The notes: generated by a model not told the origin, from the sequence alone. Counted from the stretch's first letter, positions 25,069 to 46,384 are shown. The stretch is DNA of 57,944 nt from an uncultured Methanosarcinales archaeon (GCA_964542815.1 CAZIUU010000001.1:12206-70149), one strand, 5' to 3'. A program made the numbers and translations.

Positions 25069-26217
25069 TTAACAACACTTCTCTTTCTTTTCTTCTTCTA
25101 CTGGCTTCGGCGGTATTTCTATCCTGATATGCATATGATCGCCGTGTCTTTTGTCGGGATAAAAAGCTTTGCCGTATTTCTGCCATTCTTCTTTCCCATA
25201 TTTTTCTGTTACATACTTTTTTAATGGATAAACATATCTTTGGCTCCAGAAAATGTATTCTATCTCTGAATTAGGAGCATCTTGCAATGACTTGACAAAT
25301 CTCCAATTTACTTCCAAAGTTTCTGGAGTGAGCATCTTCATACTTAATCCCCTGAACCCGCTTTTGTACTCGCCGTTTTCGAACCAATAATGACCTACAT
25401 CTATATCTATTCCATGACGATGGCTTATGTGTGGAGGAAGCCTACCTCCTCGAGCACTGCTTAAATCGCCAACCGTAAGCACCGGATAATTCCCTGAATA
25501 GGAATAATAAACATTAGTTGCACAGGCAGCTAGAGCCACGCTGTTAATCAATTCTGTCGCTCCAAATTTGGTCCCGTTTTTTCGGGTGCGGATATAATCT
25601 GTATCTGGCATCTCTGCCCACTTTAAATGGTTGAAATTTCTTGAATTCGACAATGGATTTGGAACTTCAGTAGGCGTTACCGAATAACAACTGGCAGTTT
25701 TTTCTGCTGCCTCTTCTACCGCTAGCTCTAGTCCGGAAAAATCGGGCAAATTTAATTGCGATGATTCTAGTTCTGAAGCAAACTCATGTAATTCATCTTG
25801 GGTAAGTAATCCTAACGTGGCTCTTTCTATATTATTTTTTGATTTTGGTTTGTAAGTGCTGGCAGCAGCGGTTCTTTCACCAAGTTTTACTGAAGGTTGA
25901 TGATTGGTATAATAAGCAGTAACACACATGCCTCCGGTGATACCCATTGCTATTACTGTAGCAATAGAAAAAGCTGTTTTCGCCCAGGATGGAAACGAAG
26001 GAGATGGAAATGAGAAAGATGTTTTTATTTTAGGAGCTAAGGTCGGTGGGGGTTCATTCTCAATGCATGCCATTTCCCACAAACGGGATTCATACGACGG
26101 AATTAACTTTCTTAATTTATCATATCCCTCTTTAACACATACTACTATATCGTTTTTAGATATTCTTTCAGCTAGTGAGGGGGGTTCTTGTTTGTAATTG
26201 AGGTTTATCCTAATCAT
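25069..26217 (-). CDS. membrane-anchored LAS-family metallopeptidase resembling penicillin-insensitive murein endopeptidase MepA (peptidase M74)
   Basis: PHISHRHGIDIDVGH resembles the MepA H-x-SHQ-x-GLDVD site, and GDHMHIRIE resembles its DH-x-H site. TM helix AFSIATVIAMGITGGMCVTAYY lies upstream of the catalytic domain. Confidence 0.6.
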   Translation of the reverse strand: MIRINLNYKQEPPSLAERISKNDIVVCVKEGYDKLRKLIPSYESRLWEMACIENEPPPTLAPKIKTSFSFPSPSFPSWAKTAFSIATVIAMGITGGMCVTAYYTNHQPSVKLGERTAAASTYKPKSKNNIERATLGLLTQDELHEFASELESSQLNLPDFSGLELAVEEAAEKTASCYSVTPTEVPNPLSNSRNFNHLKWAEMPDTDYIRTRKNGTKFGATELINSVALAACATNVYYSYSGNYPVLTVGDLSSARGGRLPPHISHRHGIDIDVGHYWFENGEYKSGFRGLSMKMLTPETLEVNWRFVKSLQDAPNSEIEYIFWSQRYVYPLKKYVTEKYGKEEWQKYGKAFYPDKRHGDHMHIRIEIPPKPVEEEKKEKCC

Positions 26218-29885: not shown

Positions 29886-30683
29886 TTACGGCTTTTTGGC
29901 TTTTTCCCATAAGACTTGGAAATGATTGATGTAAGCGTCGGCAACCTGTTTGTTTTTAATCATGATAATCATTGGTTTTTTCTCTTCATTATTGTAAAAG
30001 ACGCATAAAGCTACTTCGTCATTGCAGATGATGTTAGTTACATTATAATCTTCTTGTTCAAGATATTTTGCCTCAGTATAAGGGAGCGTATTAAGATACT
30101 TTATCCGCTCAATAGCTTCTTTACTATAAATGTGATACATCATCTGCTTTTGTTCCGCTCTACGTTTGTGAATCACTTCTTGGAAATATTTTCCAACTTT
30201 ATCTATCACAAATTTGGGTACGCTAAAAGCATAAATATTTCCTTTTAATTCTAAAAAATGAAGAAACATATTTCTAATAAAATCATATCCCTCATAGATT
30301 TGTACATCCTGTTTTTGGCTTAATTGCGTGCACAGGTTTAGCTCATGAATGATTTTATTAAGTTGAATTTCTTTTTCTTTTAAGATATTTTGTAATGCTG
30401 ATGGTGGTGCAGCCACATAGCACTTTTTCCCTTCATGAGTAACTTCTCCAACCAGCCCTTTCTCTTTTAACTTATTTACTGCATCATAAACGTTTACGCG
30501 ATGAATCCCGCTATGATCGGCAATCTTAGTTGCGGTGGCTAATCCTGTTTCGGTAAGAGAAAGATAGACACGTGCCTCATTTAGGGACATCCCCAATTCG
30601 ATAAGAATTTCCTCTTTCATGGCATTCATGATACCTCTTTTCTGCTCAAGTTTATATTTTTTGTGTATCTTTTGTGTATACAA
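29886..30683 (-). CDS. TrmB-family transcriptional regulator
   Basis: LGMSLNEARVYLSLTETGLATATKIADHSGIHRVNVYDAVNKLKEKGLV, plus a TrmB-type C-terminal domain. The start is probably MNAMKEE at 30629. Confidence 0.8.
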   Translation of the reverse strand: MYTQKIHKKYKLEQKRGIMNAMKEEILIELGMSLNEARVYLSLTETGLATATKIADHSGIHRVNVYDAVNKLKEKGLVGEVTHEGKKCYVAAPPSALQNILKEKEIQLNKIIHELNLCTQLSQKQDVQIYEGYDFIRNMFLHFLELKGNIYAFSVPKFVIDKVGKYFQEVIHKRRAEQKQMMYHIYSKEAIERIKYLNTLPYTEAKYLEQEDYNVTNIICNDEVALCVFYNNEEKKPMIIMIKNKQVADAYINHFQVLWEKAKKP

Positions 30684-30717
30684 ATAACCCTTGCCTCATT
30701 AATTAATGTTGTATACA
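30675..30717. promoter_or_regulatory. two TGTATACA palindromes 35 bp apart, in the divergent TrmB / kinase-operon control region
   Basis: TGTATACA occurs at 30675-30682 and 30710-30717. Candidate operator pair. Confidence 0.3.
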
Positions 30718-30870
30718 TTACTACTACACTGATTTTAGTAGGAGTTTGCTCGTTGGGTAAATAATTGCTTCCCTAGTCGTTCACTTTATGATAGTCAAAG
30801 CATTTAATTACTCTGTTAAGATAACAAGCTTTAAATATAAGTATCAGTTAACAGTTGATATTGGTGGGGT

Positions 30871-32136
30871 ATGGGTAGAAAAACTTTAGGGATACTGGGA
30901 AAAGGTCGTTTAATCGACAAATTCTGCGATTATCTTACAGATAGCCATTTCCTTTCTAAAAAAGAGACTTTTTTAGCTTGTGTTGATGAAGTCTGCTTTT
31001 ATAATTATGGGTATGTTAATGAAGAAATGTTTAGGAAAAGCAGATATTTTTCAGAAATTTGTCAAAAGTTTAAGTCTTTAAATGTTAATGTATCAGTGGA
31101 ACCCGACTTTAAGACGTTTATGGCTTCTGATGTGGTGGTAGATGCTTCTATGCCTGCGATTCCACCCACTTTGGGAGAGTTGGCAAATAGCCTGTTTGAG
31201 ATTCAGCAGTCTAAATCTGAGGGAAGAAGAATGCAGCCTTGGGCTGAAGGGGAGTACGAATCAATTAGAAGAAAGTCAGCACGAGAGTTAAAGGACTTTT
31301 GTTTAAAGAAAGAAAAAAATTGCGAAGTTGATTATACTTCATATTCTTCTGGTTTATCTGAGGGAAGAGTTGTTTCCAATCAAGAGGATTATAATCGAGA
31401 TTGGAATAAATCTTTAGAGATATTAAGAATTGTTGCTGAAACCGATATTAATTATCCTCTGGGGCTCCGATGCTTGAAACTTCTTCCTTTTGCTGTGCCC
31501 ATGATGCTAAATCGGGGGGAACAAATTCAAGAGATGGTGAAACAAGGCAAACCTTTGCCGGTGTATCTAAATCTCGTCAATGAACCATGCATGTCTTCCA
31601 CTTTGTTGACCGCAGTATGTCCAGAAATAATTCCTAAATTAGTTGCAGTGGTGTCTTATGATTTGGACCGTATCGAAACGGTTATGAATCAGAAGTATCA
31701 GGATATTAAGTTGAAAGAAGGTCTGGAGGGAATTAAACTTTCAGTATCAATGACAGGGTTTCATGATGATGATATTAATGTACCGATAATACATTCAGAA
31801 CGAAAAGAAGATGAAGCTAGTTTTATGAAATTATTTTCTAAGTTGGATTTCTCAACAGTATATCATTTTTTAATAGGAGAAGTAAATCGTTATATCAAAG
31901 CTTATGCAGTAGATGGCTTAGGTGATATCAATACTGAGGTTAGCCGTTCACTTCTATCAGCGATAGTTAATTCCTATGAAAGCTTAGGTAAAGTTTATAC
32001 AGTATACCCTTCTATAAATAATCGGCCGTTGTATAATGGCTATTTTCAGCAGTTAAATCCAAAGCAGGGGTTATTCATGATTGGGCCGCACCGCTTCAGA
32101 AACGGCGAAGTATTGCCAGTGGAGGTGGGGATATGA
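30871..32136 (+). CDS. uncharacterised protein with a Rossmann-like N-terminus; first gene of the kinase/phosphatase operon
   Basis: KTLGILGKGRLI (Gly-rich beta-alpha turn) ...ASDVVVDAS ...YLNLVNEPCMSS. The order loosely recalls LDH/MDH or GH4-type NAD folds, but this is not verified. Confidence 0.45.
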   Translation: MGRKTLGILGKGRLIDKFCDYLTDSHFLSKKETFLACVDEVCFYNYGYVNEEMFRKSRYFSEICQKFKSLNVNVSVEPDFKTFMASDVVVDASMPAIPPTLGELANSLFEIQQSKSEGRRMQPWAEGEYESIRRKSARELKDFCLKKEKNCEVDYTSYSSGLSEGRVVSNQEDYNRDWNKSLEILRIVAETDINYPLGLRCLKLLPFAVPMMLNRGEQIQEMVKQGKPLPVYLNLVNEPCMSSTLLTAVCPEIIPKLVAVVSYDLDRIETVMNQKYQDIKLKEGLEGIKLSVSMTGFHDDDINVPIIHSERKEDEASFMKLFSKLDFSTVYHFLIGEVNRYIKAYAVDGLGDINTEVSRSLLSAIVNSYESLGKVYTVYPSINNRPLYNGYFQQLNPKQGLFMIGPHRFRNGEVLPVEVGI

Positions 32137-33263
32137 ATACTACTGAATTTATGCAGATGGAAAAATTTAAAGCAATAACTTCAGTAATTACTTTAATAAG
32201 CAAGCTATCTGAACATGACTCCAGGATGACTTTTCCGGTTAAGCAAGAAAAGAGAGTTAGAGTGGACTTAAATTTATGGAATGATCTCTTTCTCCTATCC
32301 GATAAATCAATCTATCATATATCTCAAAATGTGAGAGATAGCAGTTGGAAACTTAAAGAAAAACCTCTGTTTAATGGGAAGCATTATTCTTGCCTTACTT
32401 CGTTTATCGTCGATGGAATTAAGTATACCGCAGCAGGGTATGGGAAGAACAGGTATAGGAGTGCAAGTTTCGGGATTGATATCACCAATCTGGCTGATGA
32501 TGAAACTGGTCAGGAAAGAAAAAACGTAACGTTTAATTTAGATTCAAATCGCGGATTTGATGGAGTTGGTATACTGCGTGGAGACACCGTTTATGATGTA
32601 TCAATTGTTGGTTCTCACCCAGAAGCAGGCATAATTAAAGTTCCATTGGAAGAGCTGGTGGAGAAAGATACATTGGCCATTGATCCTACTAATATCGGAA
32701 AGTATACTTTGTATGAAAACCCAAATAAGCAACAGCATGCTCCGTTAAAAGTGCATAAAAATAAGCTTTATCTAGGGCAGGATAAGACAGTGGTAGTCTT
32801 AGGTGCTACTGGGACAGTGGAAGCAGAGATGGAAGTTCCAATAATGGGGAATATTAAAGTGATTGAAGTAGATGATGAAGGAAATATCTTTTCAGGAACG
32901 GATAATGGGATTATTTATCGCAATCAAAGCAGTTTTTATGTCGGAAAGGAATTGCGCAGTATAACTAAAGTGTGTTGGGGAAAGCTTGGTAGCCACGAAG
33001 GACTTTTTTTCACGGGGGAGATGGAGCATGGCGGAGTTGGCCCGGTCTTATTTAAAGAAGGAACTGGCGGAAAGCCAGAAGAGGCTTGTTTCATACCCGG
33101 ATTAATTGACTTTGGGTATCGTGGCAGTATAAGCAGCAGAGATATGAGAGAAAATATAATTATTTTAACGTCCGGGGAGCTGATTGTTGGTGCTAAAAGA
33201 GTAACTATTTCGGGGTTTGATGCTAATTTAAGATTTAAAACAATTTATGTGGGGGGGAGTTAA
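32133..33263 (+). CDS. beta-rich (propeller-like) protein, unknown function
   Basis: 4-nt ATGA overlap with the upstream gene. Repeated short beta-strand/Gly-Asp turn patterns (IKVIEVDDEGNIFSGTDNGIIY). Confidence 0.45.
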   Translation: MNTTEFMQMEKFKAITSVITLISKLSEHDSRMTFPVKQEKRVRVDLNLWNDLFLLSDKSIYHISQNVRDSSWKLKEKPLFNGKHYSCLTSFIVDGIKYTAAGYGKNRYRSASFGIDITNLADDETGQERKNVTFNLDSNRGFDGVGILRGDTVYDVSIVGSHPEAGIIKVPLEELVEKDTLAIDPTNIGKYTLYENPNKQQHAPLKVHKNKLYLGQDKTVVVLGATGTVEAEMEVPIMGNIKVIEVDDEGNIFSGTDNGIIYRNQSSFYVGKELRSITKVCWGKLGSHEGLFFTGEMEHGGVGPVLFKEGTGGKPEEACFIPGLIDFGYRGSISSRDMRENIIILTSGELIVGAKRVTISGFDANLRFKTIYVGGS

Positions 33264-33264
33264 A

Positions 33265-34902
33265 ATGGTCGGTACAATAAGATTAACTAATGCATTAGAT
33301 AACAACGTAGAAGAGTATGAAATCGTAAGGGAAATTGGTTCCGGCACTACTGGAGTAGCTTACGAAGTTAGGCGTGAGGGTAGGATTTATGCGGCGAAAG
33401 AATGTACTTCTGATAGTAGAGATGATTTCATGCGTGATGCTGAAAAAATTTATCGTCATCCACCTTTGCATTTTGTAAAAATTTTAAGTTATGGCTCAGC
33501 AGATGTTTCTTATGAAGACCAAACTCGTAATAATCCGCTTTCGGTAATGGAATATGGAGGAAGCAACTTGCAGCAGGTGGGTGAGTTCATACGCACCAAT
33601 GCCGAAGCTTTAGTGGGAAGCCAAAACGCGGTGAAAGCCTTTGGGTATAAAGTATTGTACACGGTTCTGGAAAGTGTGTCTAAGCTTCATCAGGATAGTG
33701 GATGGCATGGTGACTTAGTGCCTACTAATATCCTGTGCGGATTTGATTTATCTGATTTTAAAGAAGTAACTGATGTTGCGCAGTTAGAGGACAGATTAAT
33801 TTATGAGCCGGTAAAATTGTGTGATAGCAGCCCTAGCGGAAGGGTAGGTTCATTGCGGTCAATGAAAGTAAAAGATTTTACTAAATTACATCCTCGAGAT
33901 AGTGCACTTTACCGGCATCTGTTAAGGCCGGAAGATGATTCTCAGAAACAGGATGTTAATGATTTGGCCGGTTACCTGTGGTGGTTTTTAGGTGGAAATA
34001 CCAAAAGCCCAAGTTTTTTTACTGGAATTGTTAAAGCATATGATGATGAAGGAAATTTGACAGTTTCAGTAGAGGATATGCTTGCTGGGGTTAAAGCTAA
34101 ATTATCCACGGAGAAAACTTTAATCGAACACAGAGCCAGAATCAAAGATGGCGAAAATTTTCCGTTAGTTTTAAGGCCGGGAGATGCATTTAGGTTGTCA
34201 TTTACTTCTAAAGTTCCACTTTCTACTGGCTCCGCGTTTAACGCGATGTACGTTGATGCTAAAAATTCCTATGACAAGATGCTTAAGCTGGGAGCGGGGG
34301 TAGTGCCTGCTGACGAAGAGAGAAGAATGCAGGACAGCCTTAAAGAGTTTGTGCTGGTTTCGGTTATAGATATACACAATAAATATCAACAGAAGCTTGA
34401 TGCTGGTCTGGAGCCATCAAAGAAGAAGGATACTTTGACCAAGAAGTTGAACACAAAAGGTAACAAACTGAAAACATTAGAGGCTGAGCTCAGTTCAGCT
34501 AAAACGAAAGCCACAGAGGCTGGAAGTACTTCTGTCAGTGATATTATTGATAAAGATAAATTTGCAGCTTATTCTCATGCGCGCGAGGTAGTTGAAGGGT
34601 TATCTAGCCAGCTTAGTAGTGTTCGTGATGGAATTAATGATATAAATGCAGAGCTGAAAGAAGTTGAGGGTAGGCTTAGTGTATATAACTATGAGGAAGA
34701 GTTGAATGCACTGAAAGAGGCTTCTGAGAAATGCCCTCCTGCGGTTTTTGCAGGAGAATTTAAAGAAATGATGGATTACTTCAACCCAAATTTATCTCCT
34801 TCCCCCCAACCACTGCCAGCAGCAGAAGTGGCTCAGCGCTGCCGCAAGATTATCATTACCAATAATTTATGGGAAAAAGTTGAATCATTATTGCCAAGAT
34901 AG
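33265..34902 (+). CDS. divergent Ser/Thr protein kinase-like protein with a C-terminal coiled coil
   Basis: G-loop IGSGTTGVAY, Lys RIYAAKE, catalytic loop HGDLVPTNIL (HRD to HGD), VKLCDSS in place of DFG. Long heptad region at 34380-34700. The ATG at 33265 is preceded by GGGGGGAG. Confidence 0.65.
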   Translation: MVGTIRLTNALDNNVEEYEIVREIGSGTTGVAYEVRREGRIYAAKECTSDSRDDFMRDAEKIYRHPPLHFVKILSYGSADVSYEDQTRNNPLSVMEYGGSNLQQVGEFIRTNAEALVGSQNAVKAFGYKVLYTVLESVSKLHQDSGWHGDLVPTNILCGFDLSDFKEVTDVAQLEDRLIYEPVKLCDSSPSGRVGSLRSMKVKDFTKLHPRDSALYRHLLRPEDDSQKQDVNDLAGYLWWFLGGNTKSPSFFTGIVKAYDDEGNLTVSVEDMLAGVKAKLSTEKTLIEHRARIKDGENFPLVLRPGDAFRLSFTSKVPLSTGSAFNAMYVDAKNSYDKMLKLGAGVVPADEERRMQDSLKEFVLVSVIDIHNKYQQKLDAGLEPSKKKDTLTKKLNTKGNKLKTLEAELSSAKTKATEAGSTSVSDIIDKDKFAAYSHAREVVEGLSSQLSSVRDGINDINAELKEVEGRLSVYNYEEELNALKEASEKCPPAVFAGEFKEMMDYFNPNLSPSPQPLPAAEVAQRCRKIIITNNLWEKVESLLPR

Positions 34903-34975
34903 GGGGCGATAACCTTAAACATTAATATTTAAACCTTAACACCCAAACATTAACATTAAGTCTGGAGATAAAATA

Positions 34976-36874
34976 ATGACGGAATCTACCCGGGATCTGG
35001 TTGTGCGAAGAATTAATAGAATAGGCACTCCAGCAAGTGAGAGAATAATTGACTGTTTGGACTATTTGGTAGAAGACGATGGGAATGATGAGGATGATGG
35101 GAATGATAAGAGCCGCAGGCTTCAGTTAAAAGACGATCCTGAATTGGTGTTCCATTTAGGGATCTCCCTGTTAGAGACAGCAGTTGAGCCTATCCCAGAT
35201 AAACGGTTCTATCAAAAAGTAAGTGGTAAATTAAACCGCTGCTTTGACAAAAGCGAAGGGTTTAAGCTGGATAACTATGGCTTAAAATGCCTTCCTGATT
35301 CTGTGCAGGCTGCAAAGAACACTTCAGTTGATGTTAGATTCATGGCTCAAAGTAGTTGGGTGTTAGGTCTACTGAGGGAGAAGCAGGGGTATTCCTACCA
35401 AGTGCGTGAGGCGTTAAGTAAAATTAATGTTTTCTATGTCCAACACGGCGCAGCAGAAAAACCAGAAACCAGAATTAAGTGCTTATTGGAAATTTCTGAC
35501 GAGCTTAACGAGCCTAATGCATTAGTCTGGCTAACTTGGTTATATCTCAACAAAAGCGATTGGAACAACACGTTAAAGTATGCGCAGAAAGGTATTGCTA
35601 ATGCTAAGCTGACCGACGATGAAATTACCAAGTCATTCCTGTTGCAATCTTTAGTTAAGAGTGTGTATGAGCTAAAATGTAATGAAGAGGGAAAATGGAA
35701 AGGTGGGATTGTAGATCTTTTAGGAGATAATCTTGAGGCTTATACTTTACTAGAGAGGTGGTGCGGTGATAATCTCGGTAAGATTAGTGGTTTTTATTCT
35801 AATGCCTTGTCCGAGATAGAAAGAAAGAAAGATAAGAGTCCAGAATATCAAGTTCTAGAGGGAATATTACATTCACGAAGAGGTAGAGTATACCGAAAAA
35901 TGGCTCGCAAGGCAGTTGGTTTTAGTTTACCGACTGCTGGAGCTTGGTATCAGTTGGTTTTAAGAGATGTTCCAGATGATGCAGAAGCAAACCTAATGCT
36001 GGCGCGCCTGGATGCTGAACTGAATAAACTAGAAGGGGCCTCTGCTAAATACCAAAAAGTGCTTAGCTTGGAGAGTTGCCCAATTGAATTTAAAGTTGAG
36101 GCATACTTATTCCTCGCGAGGAAAACGTCCGGTTTAACTTCGAACAATGAGCAATATTATGCTAAAGTGCTGGAGCTGCAGCCAGACAATCTTGAAGCAC
36201 AATTGTTTATGGGCGCTTTAAAGCTGTGGGGGAGTGTTGTTCTGGGTGGAATTAATGCTTCCAACCTAAGAATGGCAGAAGGATATTATACTTCTGTCTT
36301 GAGTAAAGACGCCGATAACTTTAGTGCTTGGCGGGGGTTAGGCCGATGTTATTTTTACCAGAAGCAATGGGAGCAGGCTTTTGGCTGTTTTGAGAAGTGT
36401 TTTGATGCACTGCCAAATGATAGTACAGCAGAACAATCTGGCGAGCACCGCTCTTTCTTCGTCCAGGGGGATTTTGCAGCAATGCTGTTTAGCCGGTATA
36501 AGTATTCTTGTTATACTGATGATTTGCCGAGTGCGGCTTTGGACGCGGAAAGGATGATTAAATCTTCAAAGGCAACCCGCATGCTAGATCAGCATACCTT
36601 TGCTTATCTTGCATCTGATTTAACTTTAAAATTATCTCAAGCCTCGGTTAATAATGTTAACCTCCGTTCATCACATGACCGTAAACATTATTTCGGGTTG
36701 GATCCCTTAGGGTTGGAGGTTAGCGACAACCCGGTTGAGGTTCTTAACCGAATTAAGGAAGAGGTTAAAGTTATTTCTAAATTGGGATACAATTATAGCT
36801 CGGTTACTGCCAAGCCGCCGCTTCTGGCACGAGCATATTTAGCTTTAGTGGGCAAGCGAGGTGATTCCAGATGA
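34976..36874 (+). CDS. TPR-repeat protein
   Basis: Multiple 34-residue repeats, e.g. AEGYYTSVLSKDADNFSAWRGLGRCYFYQKQWEQAFGCFEKCFDALPND and YYAKVLELQPDNLEAQLF. Confidence 0.75.
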   Translation: MTESTRDLVVRRINRIGTPASERIIDCLDYLVEDDGNDEDDGNDKSRRLQLKDDPELVFHLGISLLETAVEPIPDKRFYQKVSGKLNRCFDKSEGFKLDNYGLKCLPDSVQAAKNTSVDVRFMAQSSWVLGLLREKQGYSYQVREALSKINVFYVQHGAAEKPETRIKCLLEISDELNEPNALVWLTWLYLNKSDWNNTLKYAQKGIANAKLTDDEITKSFLLQSLVKSVYELKCNEEGKWKGGIVDLLGDNLEAYTLLERWCGDNLGKISGFYSNALSEIERKKDKSPEYQVLEGILHSRRGRVYRKMARKAVGFSLPTAGAWYQLVLRDVPDDAEANLMLARLDAELNKLEGASAKYQKVLSLESCPIEFKVEAYLFLARKTSGLTSNNEQYYAKVLELQPDNLEAQLFMGALKLWGSVVLGGINASNLRMAEGYYTSVLSKDADNFSAWRGLGRCYFYQKQWEQAFGCFEKCFDALPNDSTAEQSGEHRSFFVQGDFAAMLFSRYKYSCYTDDLPSAALDAERMIKSSKATRMLDQHTFAYLASDLTLKLSQASVNNVNLRSSHDRKHYFGLDPLGLEVSDNPVEVLNRIKEEVKVISKLGYNYSSVTAKPPLLARAYLALVGKRGDSR

Positions 36875-38154
36875 GTGAAAATATAAATTTGGTGTTTGGT
36901 GTCGGCGCAGACGATAATAACTTGGAGAAAGGGATATATACTTGCTCCTGGAATCAGGAAGATAGAACAGCTAAGTTGTGGAAACGATTGGGGCTGGATG
37001 GGAAGGAAGATGTAGAAGGCGGTCAAACTCCTCGGGTGATTAAGTGCGTAGGTGATAAAATATGTGCTGCAACCAGGGGAGGAATTTTTGTGGTAAATCG
37101 GGCTGGAGTAACCGTTGAGCAAAGGAAACTTGAAGACTTATTCCCACCAGAAGACGAGGACGAGGCTAAGAAACTCACGGACAAACCTACCGCCAAAGTT
37201 GGAATGCTTTTCACCGAAAGCAAAAGCTTGTTTGTATCCCTCTCCCTCCCTTCCAAAGATAAAGCTGGAAAGCCAATTTATCTTGGCCGCTTACTGTACT
37301 CCCCGAATGGGAACTTGGATCAGCTTAAGCCATTGCCCAACAAATCTGTTTCATCTTCAGTTGTTCCATCTTCGGCTCCAGTTTATTATAATCATAGAGG
37401 GATAGAAAAAGTACTGATTCCGAGCCAGAACCATCTGGAAACCATAATCCTGAATAAAGGCCTGGTGCAGGGCAGTGGCCCTCACTATCCCACTAAAGAT
37501 GGTCCTTTAGATGGCAACATACTTTCAGTATCAACTGCAGGCGGCATTATAGTGTGCACTGATGATAAAGATGGTTATTTAATTGTTGATGAGAGAGGGG
37601 ATAGGAAGAGAGAGAGATATTATCGCCGCGAGGCTGAATCTGACTTTCTCTTGGATGATAATTGCGGGGAGTATCTCCCGTCTGAAGCAACGGCTTCATT
37701 AGTAACTTTCATTGATAACAAGGCGTATGTATTGATGGGCATGAATGATGGGATTTTGGGTGCTTATGAAATTTACTCTGGTGCTGGCTATCCCAAACTG
37801 CTTCTTAGAAATATGATACAATTGATATCTGACTGGAAATCACTGGAAGTATCACGTGGAGGCGGCCCGATTTATGGGCTTAAAGAGCATATCGGGTATT
37901 TGCAGTTTACCATGCGTAATTTGTATTTTAGAATGTCTTGCAGGGATGTACTTAACCCCCAAAAGTCTATAATTACTGAGGAAGAAGAGAATCAAAAGCC
38001 AGTAATAAAAGTAGATGAAGCCACCGGGAAAAAGGAAGAAGACTTTAACACTGGTTACTTATCGATTTTGGAACAAAAATTCGAGCCAAGATTAGCGATT
38101 TGTGGAACCCCGCACCGGATATCTTGTTGGGATAATTATAATGGTGGTGATTAA
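36871..38154 (+). CDS. beta-rich (propeller-like) protein, unknown function
   Basis: ATGA overlap with the TPR gene. Repeated strand/turn motifs: ICAATRGGIFVVNRAG, VSTAGGIIVCTDDKDGYLIV, LMGMNDGILGAYEI. Confidence 0.45.
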   Translation: MSENINLVFGVGADDNNLEKGIYTCSWNQEDRTAKLWKRLGLDGKEDVEGGQTPRVIKCVGDKICAATRGGIFVVNRAGVTVEQRKLEDLFPPEDEDEAKKLTDKPTAKVGMLFTESKSLFVSLSLPSKDKAGKPIYLGRLLYSPNGNLDQLKPLPNKSVSSSVVPSSAPVYYNHRGIEKVLIPSQNHLETIILNKGLVQGSGPHYPTKDGPLDGNILSVSTAGGIIVCTDDKDGYLIVDERGDRKRERYYRREAESDFLLDDNCGEYLPSEATASLVTFIDNKAYVLMGMNDGILGAYEIYSGAGYPKLLLRNMIQLISDWKSLEVSRGGGPIYGLKEHIGYLQFTMRNLYFRMSCRDVLNPQKSIITEEEENQKPVIKVDEATGKKEEDFNTGYLSILEQKFEPRLAICGTPHRISCWDNYNGGD

Positions 38155-38162
38155 GCGCAAAC

Positions 38163-39587
38163 ATGAAAATATACGTAAGAGACGAAATAAACCGGCTGCA
38201 TGACCGGCGGGAGGATGCTCATTGTACTTCCAGCTTTAAAGATAAGGTGGGGAATAAATGGGAAATAGTTATAATTGCTGATGGGTTGAGCGGCTATCAT
38301 GGTGCAGTTGCCAGTGGAAAAAGTGTTAATGCGGTTAGGAACTATTTAACGGAGATTTTATCGCGAGATAAAGAATATTCTCCCGAAAACGCATTAAAGG
38401 GAGCTGTGCTCCATGCGAATGAGGAGTTGGAAAAAATCGGCACTACTTACACCACTATAGACACGGTTCTACTCTCTGAAGACAAATTGTATCTTGCCCA
38501 TCTGGGAGATAGCAGAGTGTATCTTGGTTTTGGGAGCACTTTAGAACTGGTGACTGAAGACCAGGGTGATTCTAATGGCCCTAAAAATTATATTGGATGC
38601 ACCTATATCGAAGGTAACTCTAAAAATATTGCTGCCAGAGTGGAATTGGCCGTAACCGAACTCCTCTCTAAAGGATATGCTAGGCCCTCTGAAATCTTGC
38701 TGGCTACTGATGGATTAATGAGTCGAGTAACCGATGCTGAGATCACTGAAATATGGGCCGATGCCCACAAAGTAAATTACGATCCCTCGGCAGTACTGGA
38801 GAAGTTCGTAGAACGTATTCGCCGTCCGGTTGGCAAGTTGAGTGAGCTGACAGAAAATCAAATACGGCGTATCGTGGGAGGGATACCAGATTTTAATCTT
38901 GGTCCTGGTGATTCTAAAGAGCAGATGATTGAGAAGATTTTAGATGCATATGTCCGAAGAGAAAGCGGGGAGTTGGTGAAAAGGATTGATGGAAATCTGA
39001 AGTATGACGATGCAACTCTGATTCTGGTCGACTTAAAAGATTCTGTTGGCAACAGTTTTGACGAATTAACAAAAGTTAAGATAAAACTTCCTGAAGTAGA
39101 GGGTGAGCGAGATGTATTTCGGGCTGATGCAATTGCAAAAGGAGAAAGAATCTCTCAGCTCACCGAAGAGAAAAGCAGCTTAGACGATACAATAAGAACA
39201 GAGAGGGAAGAAAGAAGAATTGAAGTAGAGAGATCGTTGGCGGAAATACAAGGATTAAACCAAACCATTTCTTCTCAACAGTTAACTATTGGTGATTATG
39301 TTCATAAGCTGGTTGAGATGATGGACAACACCTATTCCCTCGTTGAAAGGTACTTTACCCATCTAAAATCAGACGGCTTACCAAGACCACCTGTTGAAGA
39401 TGTAAACTTAATACAAATATTGCCTCCTGGGGAGAGAGGTAAACTACTACAAATATTTACAGAAGGGGTTAAATTAAAGGGAGAGTTGCCCACGACCTCT
39501 GGGCCGTCCTTAACTAAAAAAGTTGTTGGGGGCATTGGAAAAAGTGTTGTTGGGGTTTTAAAGTGGGGGGAGGAGAAAGATGAGTGA
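38163..39587 (+). CDS. PP2C-family Ser/Thr phosphatase with a C-terminal coiled coil
   Basis: IIADGLSGYHGAVAS, LAHLGDSRVYL, LATDGLMSRV and DDATLILVDL match the PP2C metal-binding motifs in order. Confidence 0.8.
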   Translation: MKIYVRDEINRLHDRREDAHCTSSFKDKVGNKWEIVIIADGLSGYHGAVASGKSVNAVRNYLTEILSRDKEYSPENALKGAVLHANEELEKIGTTYTTIDTVLLSEDKLYLAHLGDSRVYLGFGSTLELVTEDQGDSNGPKNYIGCTYIEGNSKNIAARVELAVTELLSKGYARPSEILLATDGLMSRVTDAEITEIWADAHKVNYDPSAVLEKFVERIRRPVGKLSELTENQIRRIVGGIPDFNLGPGDSKEQMIEKILDAYVRRESGELVKRIDGNLKYDDATLILVDLKDSVGNSFDELTKVKIKLPEVEGERDVFRADAIAKGERISQLTEEKSSLDDTIRTEREERRIEVERSLAEIQGLNQTISSQQLTIGDYVHKLVEMMDNTYSLVERYFTHLKSDGLPRPPVEDVNLIQILPPGERGKLLQIFTEGVKLKGELPTTSGPSLTKKVVGGIGKSVVGVLKWGEEKDE

Positions 39588-40932
39588 AGCAGATAATCTC
39601 TCCAGTGAGAAGCGCGGCATTAGTCAAGTTGTTGATCCGGAATTTATTCAAAAGTACAACAAACTCTCCAACTTAGTTAGTAGGCTGGTAGAAGAGTGTG
39701 AAGTACGAGATGAATATATCGCTAGCCAAAAAAGGCAGATATTGTCACTAAATGATTGCTTGAGCAATCCCGGTGGTGTAATTACTCTTGAAAGTGTTAT
39801 TGAGCGGGTGAAGACCGAGTTTAGAGCTGAACGAAGTAGGGTTAAAGATTCTGAAGATTTTTATCATTCCCTTACTGCGGTTCTGGGGTTAAGAAAGGAT
39901 GTGCCTTACGCGAGTGTAATCGATTCAGTTCAAAAGCTTAAAGAAGCTCCTAAGGAATTTGGCTTGGAGGGAAGTGGGAATACTGTTGTTGTAAATAATA
40001 ATCCCGGAAAATTACTCTATGCAACTATACTTGGGTCTAGCGTGGTTAGCGGATTAGTCTGTGCAACAGTGTTGCTATTAATGGGATATAAAGCACCAAG
40101 TCCTGATGGGCATCTAATTCGAGCGGCAGAATCAGAAATTGCATCTACCCGCCGTCCTCTGGAGATATCAGCTGATGAAAGGATAGGTAGGTGTGTTAGA
40201 GAAGTTAAAGGTTACGTCTCAAACAAATTATCCTACTTACCAGAGATTGCTAAACTGATATCACCAAGTCCGTCGTCAGTAGCAGCTGAGGCAACAAGTG
40301 TCCCAGAAACAGCATTAGTATCTGATGCAGCTAAAGTAGCTGTGGGCGGTATGTCTACACCACCTGATTCATCTAAGAAAGACATTACTTCTCCTAAAGT
40401 ATCACTAAGTAGAGTGGGGAGAGTAACTAAAGCCGAGATCAATTCAAAGTATTATACTCTCATAATTAGTGGAGAAATGGAACCAGTTACTTGTAGTGTG
40501 TCTTGTCCAAATACTCCAACAGTTACTAAACATTTAGATAATGTAGTGAATGATTATAAACTGCCGTTAAGCACATGTCCATTATACCACAATGAAATTT
40601 ATACTCGGGTGGTGTGTATAGACAAGCTTGGAAATATTTCAAAGCAGGCCGAAACTAGAACTAAAGTAAGTCTTAAGCTAGGAAAGAGCCCATCTAAGTC
40701 AGGTACGAAAACTGAGGTGGTTCCTGAGTCAGCAGTTGTGTCGCCGGAGGCAAGCACCACTAAAACTGATACCGTTTCTAATCCTGCAATCACAGCACCA
40801 GACAAACCCTCAGCTCCACCTGGGCCAACTGACATCAAAACCGAAGTAACTCCGCCCCCGGAAGTTCCAGCATCGGATAAACCCTCTGCTAAACCATCTG
40901 AAAGTGGACCAAACCAAGAACTAACTAAATAA
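39580..40932 (+). CDS. coiled-coil / single-pass membrane protein with an extracellular beta domain and a Pro/Thr/Ser-rich tail
   Basis: 8-nt overlap with the PP2C gene. TM helix LLYATILGSSVVSGLVCATVLLLMGY. PT-rich C-terminus. Confidence 0.55.
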   Translation: MSEADNLSSEKRGISQVVDPEFIQKYNKLSNLVSRLVEECEVRDEYIASQKRQILSLNDCLSNPGGVITLESVIERVKTEFRAERSRVKDSEDFYHSLTAVLGLRKDVPYASVIDSVQKLKEAPKEFGLEGSGNTVVVNNNPGKLLYATILGSSVVSGLVCATVLLLMGYKAPSPDGHLIRAAESEIASTRRPLEISADERIGRCVREVKGYVSNKLSYLPEIAKLISPSPSSVAAEATSVPETALVSDAAKVAVGGMSTPPDSSKKDITSPKVSLSRVGRVTKAEINSKYYTLIISGEMEPVTCSVSCPNTPTVTKHLDNVVNDYKLPLSTCPLYHNEIYTRVVCIDKLGNISKQAETRTKVSLKLGKSPSKSGTKTEVVPESAVVSPEASTTKTDTVSNPAITAPDKPSAPPGPTDIKTEVTPPPEVPASDKPSAKPSESGPNQELTK

Positions 40933-40954
40933 AGATTAACCAATTTAAAAAACC

Positions 40955-43048
40955 ATGACCAACCAAGATAGAACTTACAAATTGAACAATGGCGGCGTGC
41001 TTAGCAATATTGTTAAGCATAGCAATGGCACCATGAGCTCCAGATACACCGGTGATTATTCTGTTGATGGCGAATCCGCACACAGAGTCTTTTTTAAGTT
41101 GTTTAGGGGTGACTCAGATAGCTGTACCAGCCCAGCCAGCAGGGAAATACAGAAAAATGAGATATTGGTTTTAGAATTCATCAAGTTACATTTCCCCCAA
41201 TTAACTTTGTACGAGGGGTACAGCAGAGTTAATGGGGCATTATGTATACTTTCTAAGTTCATCCCAGGGCTGGGTAAAACTACTGCAAATACTCTTTGGG
41301 ACTTAATGGGAGTTGATGATGATTTCAAAGATATCACTGCAGGAATGGAAACTGCTGATTCCCTAATTCGCAAGAGGAGAGTGGTAGCCGAGAATAAATT
41401 AAATTCGTTGGAGGAAGCGGTTTATCTCTCTACAGAGATGTGTGAGCAGGCCGACTTATTCCATGGTGCCCAGCAGAAAAATGCTGATGGCCAGCTTCTA
41501 AAAGACGGGATGGTCTTAGTCGACATTTCACCAAGCAATGTCTTGATTTATCAGGATAATGAAGGAAGAAAAAAAGTTTTACTAAATGATTTCGGTTTAG
41601 CTCGGGAGAGAGGTATAAAAGCAGAAAAGTTGTACAGCCGAGCGTCAGTTAGCGGAGTCGGGGGAAGTTATTATACCACCAAGTCAGGGATAACGGTTAA
41701 TCGGGTATATCATCCACCTAACTTTGATAAGGATTATGAGAATAGCATTGAGCCATCATACGATACTTATAATCTGGTGAATATCTTGTGCCTGATGCTT
41801 ACCGGTAAGTTGGTAGAACCGCTAAAAGAGGAATCCAAAGAAGATCAGACTATACTGACCCAGCATATAATTGATAAGGTTAAAGAGAGATACCCTTTTG
41901 TTAAGGATGAAACCTGCCAAGATTTAGCTAAGATGATTGTTAAAGGGACTTCCACCAAAGATGAGCGTTATTCTTCTGCCGGAAAAATTGCTGAAGAGCT
42001 TAAAGCATTAAGGTTATCTATGCCTGTAGGGTACCAAGCCAACCATCCCACTATAAATCTAATAGCATTGCCTGGCTACCTGAAAGAGTGTCAATTAGAT
42101 TTGCCTCCGAATGAAGAGATGAAAGCTGCACATGATATTTTTATTCCCCCAGCAGCGCCTCCTACAACAGTTTCAGACGAGGCTTTTCTCGCTTCGGTGA
42201 GAGATTACTGCTCTAAGCCCAAAGAGCTGTACTTACTTATTCCGATTGCTGGTGAAGCTAAAATGTCCGATGGAAAAAAAAAACAGACTTTTCGGAAAGC
42301 GCTGAAAATCGGGATTGCTGCGGTTTCAGCCGCCGCCATAGCTGCTGCGGGATATTTTATCTCGACCAGTGACGGCTGCGAATATAAATTGCATGCATAT
42401 GCACCCCCTACCGTAAACCTTCACGAAAAGCGTGGAGATAATGGGAAAATATATGAGTTGAATGGAATTATTAAAAATAGTCCTTATGGGTTATCTAACG
42501 TTAAATTGTACGAAGATAATACTTTAATTCAGGAATGGAGTGATAACTTGGGAACAAGATTAGATGTTAATCGAGAGGTAAGCTGCCCTTATGGCAGGAC
42601 TTATACTTTAGAAGCGAGGGATAAGTTTGGGGGGGTTGGTACTGATAGCATAGAAATAAAGCCACAGGAATTCGGCGGGAAGATGGTCGATTGCCGGGAA
42701 AAAGTTGCTTCACTTTTAGGAATAGAAAATCTAGGCGAATCAACCATAACTGCCTCTGAGCAGGAAGCTTTAGGAAGTAAGTATTCCTATTATTATGGGA
42801 GGTTAAAAGCTAATCCTTTGCTCTCCGAAAAAATAGTAGTTGCTTATGTTGAAGATAATGGGGGCTCAGTGATTGCATGTGGAAGCAGCTGTGAAAAAAA
42901 ACTTATTTCTCTCTATGAACAAATAGCTCCTGCCGGAATTGATGATGTTGCTGCTTTAGATGATTTTATCTTGGGCATGGAGTCGTCTTGTGGAAGGATG
43001 GGTCCAACAGAACTTTACTGTGTGCCACTATCTGTAGTGAAAGAGTAA
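40955..43048 (+). CDS. transmembrane receptor-type Ser/Thr kinase (cytoplasmic kinase, TM helix, extracellular beta domains)
   Basis: LVDISPSNVLIY (catalytic Asp/Asn), LLNDFGLARE (DFG), DTYNLVNILCLMLTG (subdomain IX). TM helix IGIAAVSAAAIAAAGYFI. About 240-aa C-terminal ectodomain. Confidence 0.75.
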   Translation: MTNQDRTYKLNNGGVLSNIVKHSNGTMSSRYTGDYSVDGESAHRVFFKLFRGDSDSCTSPASREIQKNEILVLEFIKLHFPQLTLYEGYSRVNGALCILSKFIPGLGKTTANTLWDLMGVDDDFKDITAGMETADSLIRKRRVVAENKLNSLEEAVYLSTEMCEQADLFHGAQQKNADGQLLKDGMVLVDISPSNVLIYQDNEGRKKVLLNDFGLARERGIKAEKLYSRASVSGVGGSYYTTKSGITVNRVYHPPNFDKDYENSIEPSYDTYNLVNILCLMLTGKLVEPLKEESKEDQTILTQHIIDKVKERYPFVKDETCQDLAKMIVKGTSTKDERYSSAGKIAEELKALRLSMPVGYQANHPTINLIALPGYLKECQLDLPPNEEMKAAHDIFIPPAAPPTTVSDEAFLASVRDYCSKPKELYLLIPIAGEAKMSDGKKKQTFRKALKIGIAAVSAAAIAAAGYFISTSDGCEYKLHAYAPPTVNLHEKRGDNGKIYELNGIIKNSPYGLSNVKLYEDNTLIQEWSDNLGTRLDVNREVSCPYGRTYTLEARDKFGGVGTDSIEIKPQEFGGKMVDCREKVASLLGIENLGESTITASEQEALGSKYSYYYGRLKANPLLSEKIVVAYVEDNGGSVIACGSSCEKKLISLYEQIAPAGIDDVAALDDFILGMESSCGRMGPTELYCVPLSVVKE

Positions 43049-43052: not shown

Positions 43053-44624
43053 TCATTTGTAATTAACTTTGCTTTTACTTATCCCTTCTCTCAGCGCAAT
43101 GTAAATTATGGCATCATCACCTAATAATTTTTCCCCTACTTTACCAAACTTTTGTTTATCTATACTGCCTACTCTGTCTTTAAGTGTAGTACAAGAATAT
43201 TCCCCTTTCTCATTTATTCCAGCTATCTGCAGGCATAATTGTTTCAGCGAAGAGTCTTGAGTATATCGTGAATATCTAGCTCCGGCTATGGCTAGATCCT
43301 GCTCTTTGACGATGGACATCCACGGAATATCTTTATTGGGAATAGCATCTATTGGTTTTTGGTTTGGGTTTGGTGCAACATCCTTAATTTGTGGCTTGAG
43401 TTCGTATTCCCCCACTGTTATATTTAATTCTCTTTTTTTGGTGAGCTGAGTCGCAGTAACATACTTACTTATCCTATCAATCCAATCGAACTGATCTTGC
43501 AGTAATTTAACTGTGTTTGATTCACCCAAGCGTTCACAATATTCTTTTAACTCCATTGCTCTGTCAGCATAATTGCTTAATCTGGTATAATTATGCGAAT
43601 TGATATTCGCAGTTATGGTTTTGGTTAATTCAGAACATTCAGTTTTAGCTAATTCGGTAAGTTCTTTTTTTCTATCTTCCTTTAGTTTTTTCAGATCATG
43701 AGCTAGTTGGTGAAAATCGGCTAGATCTTTTTTTAGAAGCAGATAATCAGTTGCAGGTGCTGTAACATTATTCGGTATTACCACTTTGTCAACATAAGTT
43801 TGGTTTAGTGCCGGGCTATTATTACTGAGATATACAAAGTCATCACGAAGTGTAATAATTTCCTGCCATAGTTCTCTCTTTACTTTCTGAAACCCTGCCG
43901 AATTTTCGGTTACTTTTTCGATATCATCTTTAATCTGTGTGAATGCTTCTAATGGCGATGCGTCTAATATTGTTAGCTCTTCATTGCTTAATCTATTTTC
44001 AGGTCTTTGTTTAAGTTTGTGTTTTATTCCATCGGCTTTCTGCCAGAAATCATGTTCAAATTCATGTTTAAATTTGATAACCTCATCAACACTAGTTAAT
44101 TGGGCATACTGCTTAAGATATTTTTCTGCCATTTGAGGCGAAGCTATGAATGCTAATTCTGACATATCAGCATAGAACTGATTTAATTGTGTTTTTCCGG
44201 GGAATAATTCTGGGTCGAGATCAGCAGCGCAACGGTACTTGGAACAAAGCTCCATGACCGAGGTTAGTTCTCCTTCTTTATTTGCTTCTGTAGAATTGTG
44301 CCATCTTTTAAAGCCAACTTTTATTTGTGGGGCTAATGATAAATATTCTTTTCGTCTTTGTGATAAAACTTCTACAATCTCTTCAAAAGCGTGATTAGCT
44401 TCTTTAATCTCCCGATAGCTGGAAGGCGGCAAATCTCCTCCGCAGGTTTTTTGTAGATGGATAATCTCGTCTTGTAATCTTCTTAATCCTGATTGAGCTC
44501 GGATTAAATTATCTGCGGTTAGTTGTTCTGGATTAGTTAATGCTTTTCTTCTGTTAATAATCTCTTCCAAACATTTCTTGTTATCAATCCAATACATATA
44601 TGCATCCGTTTGTGTACTCATCAT
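43053..44624 (-). CDS. large alpha-helical protein, unknown function; last gene of the minus-strand cluster
   Basis: ORF track. Helical and coiled-coil composition. No motif recognised. Confidence 0.45.
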   Translation of the reverse strand: MMSTQTDAYMYWIDNKKCLEEIINRRKALTNPEQLTADNLIRAQSGLRRLQDEIIHLQKTCGGDLPPSSYREIKEANHAFEEIVEVLSQRRKEYLSLAPQIKVGFKRWHNSTEANKEGELTSVMELCSKYRCAADLDPELFPGKTQLNQFYADMSELAFIASPQMAEKYLKQYAQLTSVDEVIKFKHEFEHDFWQKADGIKHKLKQRPENRLSNEELTILDASPLEAFTQIKDDIEKVTENSAGFQKVKRELWQEIITLRDDFVYLSNNSPALNQTYVDKVVIPNNVTAPATDYLLLKKDLADFHQLAHDLKKLKEDRKKELTELAKTECSELTKTITANINSHNYTRLSNYADRAMELKEYCERLGESNTVKLLQDQFDWIDRISKYVTATQLTKKRELNITVGEYELKPQIKDVAPNPNQKPIDAIPNKDIPWMSIVKEQDLAIAGARYSRYTQDSSLKQLCLQIAGINEKGEYSCTTLKDRVGSIDKQKFGKVGEKLLGDDAIIYIALREGISKSKVNYK

Positions 44625-44658
44625 GATTAATACCTCCGATGTTTTTATTATTGTTGTA

Positions 44659-44791
44659 GTATGTGCATAGCATCTTCAAAATTCTGGTGAGGGTTATCGT
44701 TGGGGTGACATCCCCGTAGGGGGCAAGTTCCCCTGTCACCATCGCAGGAATATTCTGAATTAATTTTGACCTTATGATGCTATGCACATAC
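44659..44791 (+). ncRNA. UCCCCG-apex structured element, copy B
   Basis: Perfect 16-bp P1 GUAUGUGCAUAGCAUC/GAUGCUAUGCACAUAC. P2 UCAAAAUU/AAUUUUGA. P3 GGUGACA/UGUCACC. Apex UCCCCGUAGGGGGCAAGUUCCCC. Confidence 0.5.
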
Positions 44792-44798
44792 CTTTAGT

Positions 44799-46382: not shown

Positions 46383-46384
46383 GG

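Follow-up and report, generated by a model that had tools for sequence, protein, structure and literature searches.

The window considered here, a 57,944-nucleotide stretch of an archaeal genome (GCA_964542815.1 CAZIUU010000001.1:12206-70149), carries an eight-gene operon that is predicted to encode two Ser/Thr kinases, a PP2C-type phosphatase and five partner proteins, beside a divergently transcribed gene for a TrmB-family regulator. The window has a GC content of about 0.39 and genes for FtsZ, an archaeal-type prolyl-tRNA synthetase (ProRS), ELP3 and TrmB. Its FtsZ clusters at 90% identity with proteins that are entered, where named, as 'Candidatus Woesearchaeota archaeon' or 'Nanoarchaeota archaeon', and on the basis of this membership we assign the window to a Woesearchaeal genome of the DPANN archaea. 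The genomes of these organisms are small, they are believed to rely on hosts, and to our knowledge almost nothing is known of how they sense those hosts or regulate their limited metabolism.

Eight open reading frames (ORFs) lie co-directionally on the plus strand between positions 30871 and 43048, overlapping or closely spaced (Table 1). An original prediction, made from the sequence alone, had described eight plus-strand genes joined by ATGA-type overlaps or short gaps, and recomputation of the ORFs and their junctions agrees with it. Four-base-pair ATGA overlaps connect P1 with P2 (32133/32136) and the TPR gene with P5 (36871/36874), the PP2C/P7 junction (39580/39587) is an 8-bp overlap, and the remaining gaps measure 8, 22 and 73 bp. 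The start of K1 is ambiguous, because translation could begin at the ATG at 33247, which gives a 17-bp overlap with P2, or at that at 33265, which the gene caller chose; both ATGs are conserved. At the other end, 4 bp separate the end of K2 from the stop codon of a gene that is convergent with it. The GC content within the operon (window positions 32001-42000) is 0.40-0.44, versus 0.35-0.39 in the flanks. The single sizeable intergenic gap within the operon, between K1 and the TPR gene (34903-34975), is smaller in relatives (20-42 bp). It contains AACATTAATATTTAAAC, which resembles the TFB recognition element (BRE)/TATA sequence of the P1 promoter and may be an internal promoter.

Table 1. Genes and control elements of the operon, in window coordinates (aa, amino acids; TM, transmembrane; AF2, AlphaFold2; LDH/MDH, lactate/malate dehydrogenase).
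Feature	Position	Strand	Basis or remark
TrmB-family winged-helix regulator, 247 aa from ATG at 30629	29886..30629	-	Divergent from operon; Pfam TrmB
First TGTATACA palindrome	30675..30682		Present in window and L001/L002 only
Candidate TrmB operator, 21-bp imperfect inverted repeat GTTGTAT-N7-TACTACA	30708..30728		Cross-lineage conservation
BRE/TATA-type archaeal promoter GATAACAAGCTTTAAATA	30820..30837	+	33 nt before P1 start codon; promoter role inferred
P1, predicted LDH/MDH-fold protein, 421 aa	30871..32136	+	AF2 model and Foldseek
P2, predicted beta-propeller protein, 376 aa	32133..33263	+	Family profile versus solved propellers
K1, predicted cytoplasmic Hanks-type kinase, non-RD (HGD/CDS), long helical C-terminal half	33247..34902	+	Pfam and family profile
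TPR protein, 632 aa	34976..36874	+	Pfam TPR families
P5, beta-rich, probably propeller-like, 427 aa	36871..38154	+	Orthologs in 7 loci; weak propeller similarity
PP2C/PPM phosphatase with C-terminal coiled coil, 474 aa	38163..39587	+	Pfam above gathering threshold
P7, single-pass membrane protein, 450 aa	39580..40932	+	TM and coiled-coil scan
K2, predicted receptor-type Hanks kinase, 697 aa	40955..43048	+	Pfam, family profile, TM scan

Our initial homology searches suggested that the operon is narrowly distributed. A word-seeded search of 5.8 billion sequences returned three P1 and three P5 proteins, namely those of the window and of two close relatives (73-76% identity for P1 and 53-54% for P5) whose contigs carry the whole operon together with TrmB and ELP3. 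The same type of search with a 37-sequence P1 profile added one homolog. When HMMER was run in full over 1.84 billion representatives, the P1 profile identified 38 family members at 23-37% identity, and thus the apparent restriction of P1 to three homologs is an artefact of sensitivity. Loci were then collected from a metagenome scan and exact look-ups and compared by BLAST and iterated hidden Markov models (HMMs); a scan of genome contigs yielded no locus beyond one already collected.

Among the 16 loci fetched, a common gene order is evident: TrmB (divergent), an optional flavin adenine dinucleotide (FAD) oxidase, P1, P2, K1, a TPR-like protein, P5, PP2C, one or more variable coiled-coil or membrane proteins, and K2. 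This order is present in L001, L002, L009, L010, L012, L013, L015/16 and L018, whose contigs are long enough, and its beginning is visible on the short contigs L006, L007, L011, L014, L017 and P0015. In all, it is retained in about 13 lineages at 21-32% protein identity. The original prediction had held that its operon interpretation would fail if the neighbourhood were not conserved in any relative; the corresponding comparison finds the gene set conserved far beyond the close relatives. Retention of gene order in at least a dozen very divergent relatives indicates that the operon is real.

The ends of the module can be placed with similar reasoning. A K2 ortholog closes the operon in L001, L009, L013 and L018, and the last gene of L002 (806 aa) is cut by the end of the locus. 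Upstream neighbours vary by lineage (ELP3; aEF-2; permease/RTC), and in L013, the only other locus that reaches past K2, the following gene is convergent but unrelated to that of the window. We therefore take TrmB and K2 to be the module boundaries. The occurrence of a single fixed locus, with the same regulator adjacent in every lineage, argues for vertical inheritance and shows no sign of mobility. In L015 (19162-22445) the K2 position is occupied by a protein of 1409 aa that is rich in repeats and has a hydrophobic segment at its C terminus, and in which no kinase signature or K2 HMM match was detected; its last ~315 residues lie outside the scanned locus, and the contig extends further.

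Sequence divergence is distributed very unevenly across this conserved architecture. Relative to the two closest relatives, flanking housekeeping proteins are 79-90% identical and TrmB 96-98%, while identity within the operon falls to 73-76% for P1, 63-64% for P2, 49-58% for K1, 50-57% for the TPR protein, 53-54% for P5 and 55-56% for PP2C. In distant lineages TrmB retains 57-64% identity whereas P1, P2, K1, P5, PP2C and K2 drop to 21-32%, and the occupant of the TPR slot is recognisable by iterated HMM only. Divergence is greatest in K1, the TPR protein, P5 and the variable P7 slot. As judged from these comparisons, the module keeps its architecture and position while its sequences change quickly, and it lies beside an unusually constrained regulator.

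For P1, the original prediction had offered a Rossmann-like protein and had proposed structure prediction with AlphaFold and Foldseek. An AF2 model built from a 37-sequence alignment has a pLDDT of 89.6 and a pTM of 0.90; with three close orthologs alone the pLDDT was 40, such that the 34 distant relatives from the full HMMER scan made the difference. In a Foldseek comparison with the PDB, all 50 of the 50 matches listed are L-LDH or MDH proteins, each at a probability of 1.00 (best E 8.6e-10), with target-normalised TM-scores of 0.57-0.69 and sequence identities of 8-14% among these matches. The Rossmann-like assignment can thus be refined to a predicted LDH/MDH fold, one that is often fused to P2.

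Conserved residues in P1 are consistent with this assignment. Across 37 sequences at 23-37% identity R200, N237, R267, G296 and H298 are invariant, and E238, P239, D264 and D299 are nearly so. The order, spacing and predicted secondary-structure context of R200/N237/D264/R267/H298 are like those of LDH R109/N140/D168/R171/H195, and by spacing this stretch of P1 would be the counterpart of LDH D168-x-x-R171 and G-x-H195-(G)D. A local hhalign alignment with LDH and MDH sequences places D264/R267/H298 with LDtaR...GEH, although the match is weak (E 0.05); a global hhalign comparison of P1 with LDH/MDH gave no match. The protein also departs from the enzymes. The glycines of its dinucleotide-binding motif follow an atypical pattern, G7-x-x-G10-x-G12, in which a bulky residue takes the third Gly position, and a helical insertion of ~100 residues (about residues 99-194) is located where LDH has its mobile active-site loop. 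P1, P2, P5 and P7 of the window have no Pfam match, a Pfam scan of 37 P1-family members gave no match to Ldh_1_N, Ldh_1_C or GH4, P1 has no NCBIfam match, and a PDB profile search with the P1 family, unfused members included, returned nothing significant. P1 therefore appears, from its modelled structure, to be an example of the LDH/MDH fold that sequence methods miss.

P2 is physically joined to P1 in about 13 of the 38 family representatives, which are fusion proteins of 719-818 aa. A twelve-sequence P2 profile matches the propeller sensor domains of Bacteroides hybrid two-component systems (3ott/3va6, 1.1e-10; 3v9f, 1.9e-7), a PQQ-propeller membrane kinase (7dxn, 4.3e-5) and designed 'Cake' propellers, and WD40_like Pfam matches (1e-5) occur in P1-P2 fused members. 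Profile similarity thus identifies P2 as a beta-propeller, in line with one of the two propeller-like proteins originally predicted. For the other, P5, the evidence is suggestive only. Its propeller signals are weak (WDR36, E 0.25; hhalign versus the P2 family, E 0.0017 at a probability of 15%), PDB profile searches with P5 returned nothing significant, and paralogy between P2 and P5 was undetectable with close orthologs alone. Nonetheless, orthologs in seven loci share an invariant C-terminal HRI motif within a PHRI[S/T]-like strand, together with a WD-like blade motif, and P5 is probably propeller-like. A TM scan found neither a signal peptide nor a TM helix in P5. The P5 ortholog of L009 (11088-12971) carries a PG_binding_1 insertion at residues 444-502 (4.6e-13), just before the PHRI strand, which is odd in a protein without a signal peptide.

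K1 of the window retains GSGTTG, AAK and HGD..N and has CDS, exactly as had been read from the sequence alone: a G-loop, the AxK Lys and the catalytic D..N, with HGD instead of HRD and CDS instead of DFG. Alignment of orthologs agrees. GxGxxG, the AxK Lys and H[GRNK]D..N are kept in all full-length orthologs, and (C/A)D stands in place of DFG in all but one, whose alignment is unclear; one close ortholog has HRD. Because neither the HRD Arg nor the DFG Phe/Gly is conserved, K1 would be a non-RD, atypical kinase. The window protein scores below the Pfam Pkinase gathering score of 31.7 bits (E 6e-6, 26.3 bits), but orthologs reach 32.8 and 38.8 bits. With a nine-sequence profile, K1 matches StkP at 9.4e-12 and 938 distinct PDB kinase sequences in total.

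K2 shows a similar pattern, falling below the Pfam Pkinase gathering threshold in the window (E 1.2e-5) and exceeding it in orthologs. Its family profile matches Stk1 (4eqm, 1.7e-7) and PknB (4e-6). Conserved positions include the Lys (FFK), the helix-C Glu (NE), D....N, DFG, DTY and DERY, with a degenerate G-loop (GxxSxRY), and an N-terminal kinase domain is followed by one TM helix (residues 449-471) and an outer domain of ~225 aa. The earlier description of K2 as a receptor-type kinase that keeps DFG, lacks a clear G-loop, and bears a TM segment and an ectodomain is borne out. Since the catalytic residues are conserved and both family profiles match hundreds of solved kinases, K1 and K2 are predicted to possess the catalytic fold, whose absence the original prediction had named as fatal to its interpretation. 

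The phosphatase exceeds Pfam cut-offs for PP2C_2 (1.6e-8, 34.8 bits versus 24) and PP2C (1.3e-7, 32.0 bits versus 20.3). Its best NCBIfam match is Stp1/IreP (3.6e-18), far below the curated cut-off. The metal-binding ED, DG, GDS, DG and DD motifs, represented in the window by D18, D40-G41, G115-D116, D183-G184 and D282-D283, are kept in seven of seven orthologs from all lineages. By their motifs and profiles, K1 and K2 are Hanks-type kinases, and PP2C is likewise catalytically plausible.

The remaining proteins are candidates for scaffolding and membrane attachment. The TPR protein matches several TPR Pfam families, of which TPR_2 and TPR_19 exceed the gathering threshold, and positional orthologs were found in seven loci by iterated HMM. 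In P7, the N terminus forms a coiled coil, residues ~145-170 a TM helix, and the outer part is rich in S/T/P; its slot is the most variable of the operon. Two separate genes correspond to P7 in L001 (18632-20579) and L002 (18711-21154), with a third extra gene in L002, which points to recent fusion, fission or turnover of this membrane-protein slot. No sequence homologs of P7 were found in the distant loci, where its slot is filled by a non-homologous coiled-coil and/or single-TM protein. Long coiled coils had been predicted on PP2C, K1 and P7. These assignments agree with crude sequence composition and SMC-like profile matches, the sole kinds of support obtained, the latter including matches to K1 residues 372-493.

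The regulator is a member of the TrmB family (PF01978, 1.4e-15, 57.3 bits versus a cut-off of 25.6) and, as had been noted, is transcribed divergently from the operon. Its orthologs (246-251 aa) are divergent beside P1 or the oxidase gene in 10 loci. The best NCBIfam score is 36.9 bits versus a cut-off of 600 and covers residues 7-127, in the N-terminal half of the protein; NCBIfam and Pfam scans revealed no recognisable sugar-binding C-terminal domain. In L001 and L002, the 96-98% identity of TrmB compares with 82-89% for ELP3 and a diphthine-synthase-like methylase, indicating unusually strong constraint.

The control region contains a conserved element as well. The inverted repeat GTTGTAT-N7-TACTACA has one exact match in the whole window. 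The exact form, with 14 specified bases, occurs once each in 9 of the 16 fetched loci and always between TrmB and the oxidase gene or P1, while one-mismatch versions are found in L007, L009 and L014, and L014 and L015 have two copies. This repeat is a candidate TrmB operator on the strength of its conservation, and GTTGTATACATTACTACTACA is the stretch that we take as the TrmB-binding candidate. It has a TACT core, and characterised TrmB sites are inverted repeats with such a core. A two-mismatch copy at 51372-51392, within a FIST gene, is probably due to chance. The original prediction had instead pointed to two TGTATACA palindromes. Both copies exist, at 30675 and 30710, but the first is genus-specific and the second overlaps the left arm of the inverted repeat, which is the element that is conserved; because the TGTATACA word is not conserved outside the genus, we rejected it as an operator.

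Farther downstream, GATAACAAnnTTTAAATA lies ~33-40 nt upstream of the P1 start codon in lineages that are ~25-30% identical in protein, and it looks like a strong BRE/TATA promoter. The window element GATAACAAGCTTTAAATA is the only exact match in the window. Elements of this type directly precede P1 in L001, L002, L007, L009, L010, L012 and L014, are degenerate in L013 and L015, and stay immediately before P1 in loci that bear the oxidase gene. We set aside GATAACAA-TTTAAATA as a special regulator site because other promoters in the window share the A-rich BRE and TTTAAATA.

In six contigs (L006, L009, L013, L015/16, L018 and P0015), a gene for a DAO-family flavoenzyme is inserted between TrmB and P1; sequence comparison found no such gene in the window. 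Its best NCBIfam matches are L-2-hydroxyglutarate oxidase (LhgO; 1e-53 to 1e-65) and type-2 glycerol-3-phosphate oxidase, both below the curated cut-offs. Pairwise identities among the four DAO sequences compared are 33-45%, which suggests that this gene is ancestral, and the LhgO-like oxidase was probably a ninth member of the operon that has been lost here. Given that a 2-hydroxyacid oxidase adjoins an LDH/MDH-fold protein, we infer that P1 may handle 2-hydroxy- or 2-oxoacids. In loci with this gene, the inverted repeat abuts the core promoter and its end is 35-39 nt upstream of the DAO start codon; in those without it, the repeat is 163-177 nt upstream of the start codon of P1 and is separated from the TrmB start by ~80 nt.

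Motif, profile and neighbourhood data together uphold the proposal of a self-contained kinase/phosphatase module with TPR and propeller scaffold, a coiled-coil membrane protein and a receptor kinase. The interpretation that we favour, with slightly better than even confidence, is that this lineage-specific, vertically inherited Woesearchaeal operon encodes a multi-protein Ser/Thr phospho-signalling complex in which a receptor kinase is linked to an LDH/MDH-like unit. K2, probably with the variable P7, would sense something outside the cell. The complex itself would be assembled through coiled coils of K1, PP2C and P7 and through the TPR and propeller scaffolds, with K1 and PP2C controlling its phosphorylation. 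The P1-P2 unit might be the regulated output, perhaps a 2-hydroxyacid/2-oxoacid redox step in a fermentative cell, or else an input that senses a metabolite or NADH. TrmB would govern the locus through the 21-bp repeat, and in many relatives would govern the adjacent LhgO-like flavoenzyme as well. TrmB-family proteins are known for control of sugar and central carbon metabolism.

Several observations weigh against this interpretation. The rate at which the operon proteins evolve is far above that of their neighbours and would be unusual for a core metabolic regulator. In loci without the DAO gene, including the window, the repeat is ~110 bp upstream of the P1 TATA, and at this distance TrmB may regulate only itself or DAO and be merely syntenic with the operon. 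The atypical dinucleotide motif of P1 and the replacement of its mobile active-site loop by a large insertion could mean that P1 is a pseudoenzyme, and sequence profiles from Pfam, NCBIfam and the PDB do not recognise it as an LDH/MDH protein. Complex formation and the direction of signalling are themselves proposals.

Some of these same features are expected if the operon is instead a sensor of host or envelope contact, with K2 and P7 reading a surface cue such as a host cell or fragments of a cell wall, P1-P2 acting as a structural pseudoenzyme scaffold only, and the output being some other genomic target instead of 2-hydroxyacid metabolism. Such a sensor would account for two single-pass membrane proteins with variable outer domains, for divergence that is faster than in the flanks and peaks in K1, the TPR protein, P5 and the P7 slot, and for fission and fusion of the P7 gene. 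The PG_binding_1 insertion in one P5 ortholog, a murein endopeptidase gene nearby, and the altered nucleotide motif and active-site loop of P1 also fit. However, in a pure scaffold one would hardly expect the R/N/D/R/H residues of P1 to stay invariant or almost invariant over such divergent sequences, the LhgO-like 2-hydroxyacid oxidase is a conserved upstream partner in six contigs, and P5 has no signal peptide or TM helix. We consider contact sensing possible but rather unlikely. The P1 residues and the oxidase that speak against it would be natural in a mainly metabolic operon, wherein P1, with or without the LhgO-like oxidase, is a genuine 2-hydroxyacid dehydrogenase under TrmB control, the kinases and phosphatase serve it as dedicated post-translational regulators, and there is no notable extracellular sensing. 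The LDH/MDH fold with its conserved candidate catalytic set, the resemblance of DAO to L-2-hydroxyglutarate or type-2 glycerol-3-phosphate oxidase, the metabolic roles generally known for TrmB proteins, and the position of the repeat just before DAO are all in keeping with this idea. Conversely, seven accessory signalling genes would be extravagant for a single enzyme, P1 is 26-32% identical where TrmB keeps 57-64%, both K2 and P7 sit in the membrane and have outer domains, and half of the lineages, that of the window included, have lost DAO. On balance a mainly metabolic role is improbable.

Rapid evolution relative to neighbouring genes might also reflect biological conflict, with kinase signalling triggering a defence against viruses or competitors. 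TPR and propeller sensor-like modules are common in conflict systems (PMC7159879), and there are weak PADLOC matches to kinase-containing candidate systems (PD-T4-6, mad6). These matches are confined to the generic kinase domain; overall, PADLOC gave generic kinase-domain and coiled-coil matches only, with none for 6 of the 10 proteins scanned. Furthermore, Pfam and PADLOC scans detected no nuclease, toxin, NTPase or other effector, every lineage retains the locus in one fixed place beside its regulator, without any hint of mobility, and the adjacent AAA cluster has no homologue in the other fetched loci. We rejected the defence-system explanation as very unlikely, there being no non-kinase PADLOC match and no effector. 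Finally, a fortuitous juxtaposition of unrelated genes can safely be dismissed, because the order persists in about 13 lineages at 21-32% identity while the flanks change, P1 and P2 genes are fused in some members, and start and stop codons of adjacent genes overlap.

Among characterised systems, the operon is most reminiscent of PknB-PstP (Mycobacterium), PrkC-PrpC (Bacillus), StkP-PhpP and Stk1-Stp1, each of which likewise pairs a single-pass receptor Ser/Thr kinase with its cognate PP2C in one operon; StkP, Stk1 and PknB are also the best solved-structure matches of the K1 and K2 profiles. Unlike these bacterial pairs, the module described here is archaeal and adds a second, cytoplasmic non-RD kinase along with TPR, propeller and LDH-like partners. 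PASTA and FHA domains gave no Pfam match in the eight operon proteins, and the NCBIfam model PknB_PASTA_kin reaches 19 bits versus a cut-off of 450, over the kinase domain only. Kinase-plus-propeller logic is shared with propeller- and TPR-fused kinases such as the 7dxn PQQ-propeller membrane kinase and LRRK2 (WD40), but here the propeller either has its own gene or takes the LDH-like protein, and not the kinase, as its fusion partner. P1 resembles the L-LDH/MDH superfamily (Ldh_1_N/Ldh_1_C) in its predicted whole-chain fold and in the arrangement of its candidate catalytic residues, and differs by its insertion, its glycine motif, its coupling or fusion to a propeller, and its setting in a kinase operon. 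TrmB, TrmBL1, TrmBL2 and Halobacterium TrmB have an N-terminal winged helix in common with the window protein, which is distinguished from them by its length of only 247 aa, the lack of an equivalog-level match, and the absence of a visible sugar-binding C-terminal domain.

The best-studied Hanks-kinase system in archaea is the archaellum regulatory network of Sulfolobus (ArnA/B/C/D, PP2A; PMC5007285), which similarly combines Hanks-type kinases, a phosphatase and non-catalytic adaptors. Its adaptors are FHA and vWA proteins, its phosphatase is of the PPP type, and its genes are dispersed around the archaellum operon (PMC5007285), whereas the module in the window has TPR and propeller adaptors, a PPM-type phosphatase and a single operon; no FHA or vWA domain was found in the operon proteins with Pfam. 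PPM-type phosphatases have barely been studied in archaea, with one enzyme reported as of a 2016 review (PMC5007285).

Hanks-kinase/PP2C signalling operons as such are known, and what appears unusual here is the LDH/MDH-derived core that the structural model reveals and that is invisible to sequence searches. The gene combination had been proposed not to be a described system, and our search of full-text literature, in which journal coverage is incomplete, found no published description of it. A 12-kb module of eight to nine genes whose order is kept across a Woesearchaeal radiation provides a concrete, testable candidate control system for DPANN archaea. P1 would exemplify an undetected LDH/MDH fold recruited, with fusion to a propeller, into a signalling context, and the repeat offers a precisely delimited candidate operator for a TrmB-family protein that is itself unusually conserved. 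More tentatively, an LDH/MDH-derived protein fused or coupled to a propeller might have been recruited as the metabolite- or redox-sensing (or regulated) core of a machine of two kinases and a phosphatase. By way of the receptor kinase and a rapidly diversifying membrane partner, this machine would connect the fermentative metabolism of Woesearchaeota with cues from their host or environment. If so, it would represent a lineage-defining symbiosis-signalling apparatus without a described counterpart.

The convergent genes that follow K2 form a minus-strand cluster (43053-49028) encoding two coiled-coil proteins (523 and 364 aa), a P-loop protein with a weak resemblance to DUF5906 (1.1e-3) and an AAA ATPase of the classical type (1.4e-29). 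The operon had been described as lying next to this AAA cluster, and in the window it does, but the adjacency is unsupported elsewhere: no homolog of the cluster was found in any other fetched locus, of which just one (L013) extends past K2. The AAA cluster could be a separate lineage-specific or mobile module. Beyond it, a FIST N+C domain protein (50772-52274, minus strand), a putative small-molecule sensor, heads an unassigned minus-strand run (52271-53928).

On the other side of the operon, a homolog of Peptidase_M74, a penicillin-insensitive murein endopeptidase, is encoded at 25069-26217 on the minus strand (Pfam 2.6e-9), with a 79% identical counterpart in L001 (187-1362, minus strand). 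As the cell itself should contain no murein, this enzyme may act on the walls of bacteria. Seven large ORFs, of up to 989 aa, occupy positions 22-11103 on the plus strand; their sole Pfam match is a weak one to the DUF4215 Cys-rich repeat, and they may encode surface or lineage-specific proteins.

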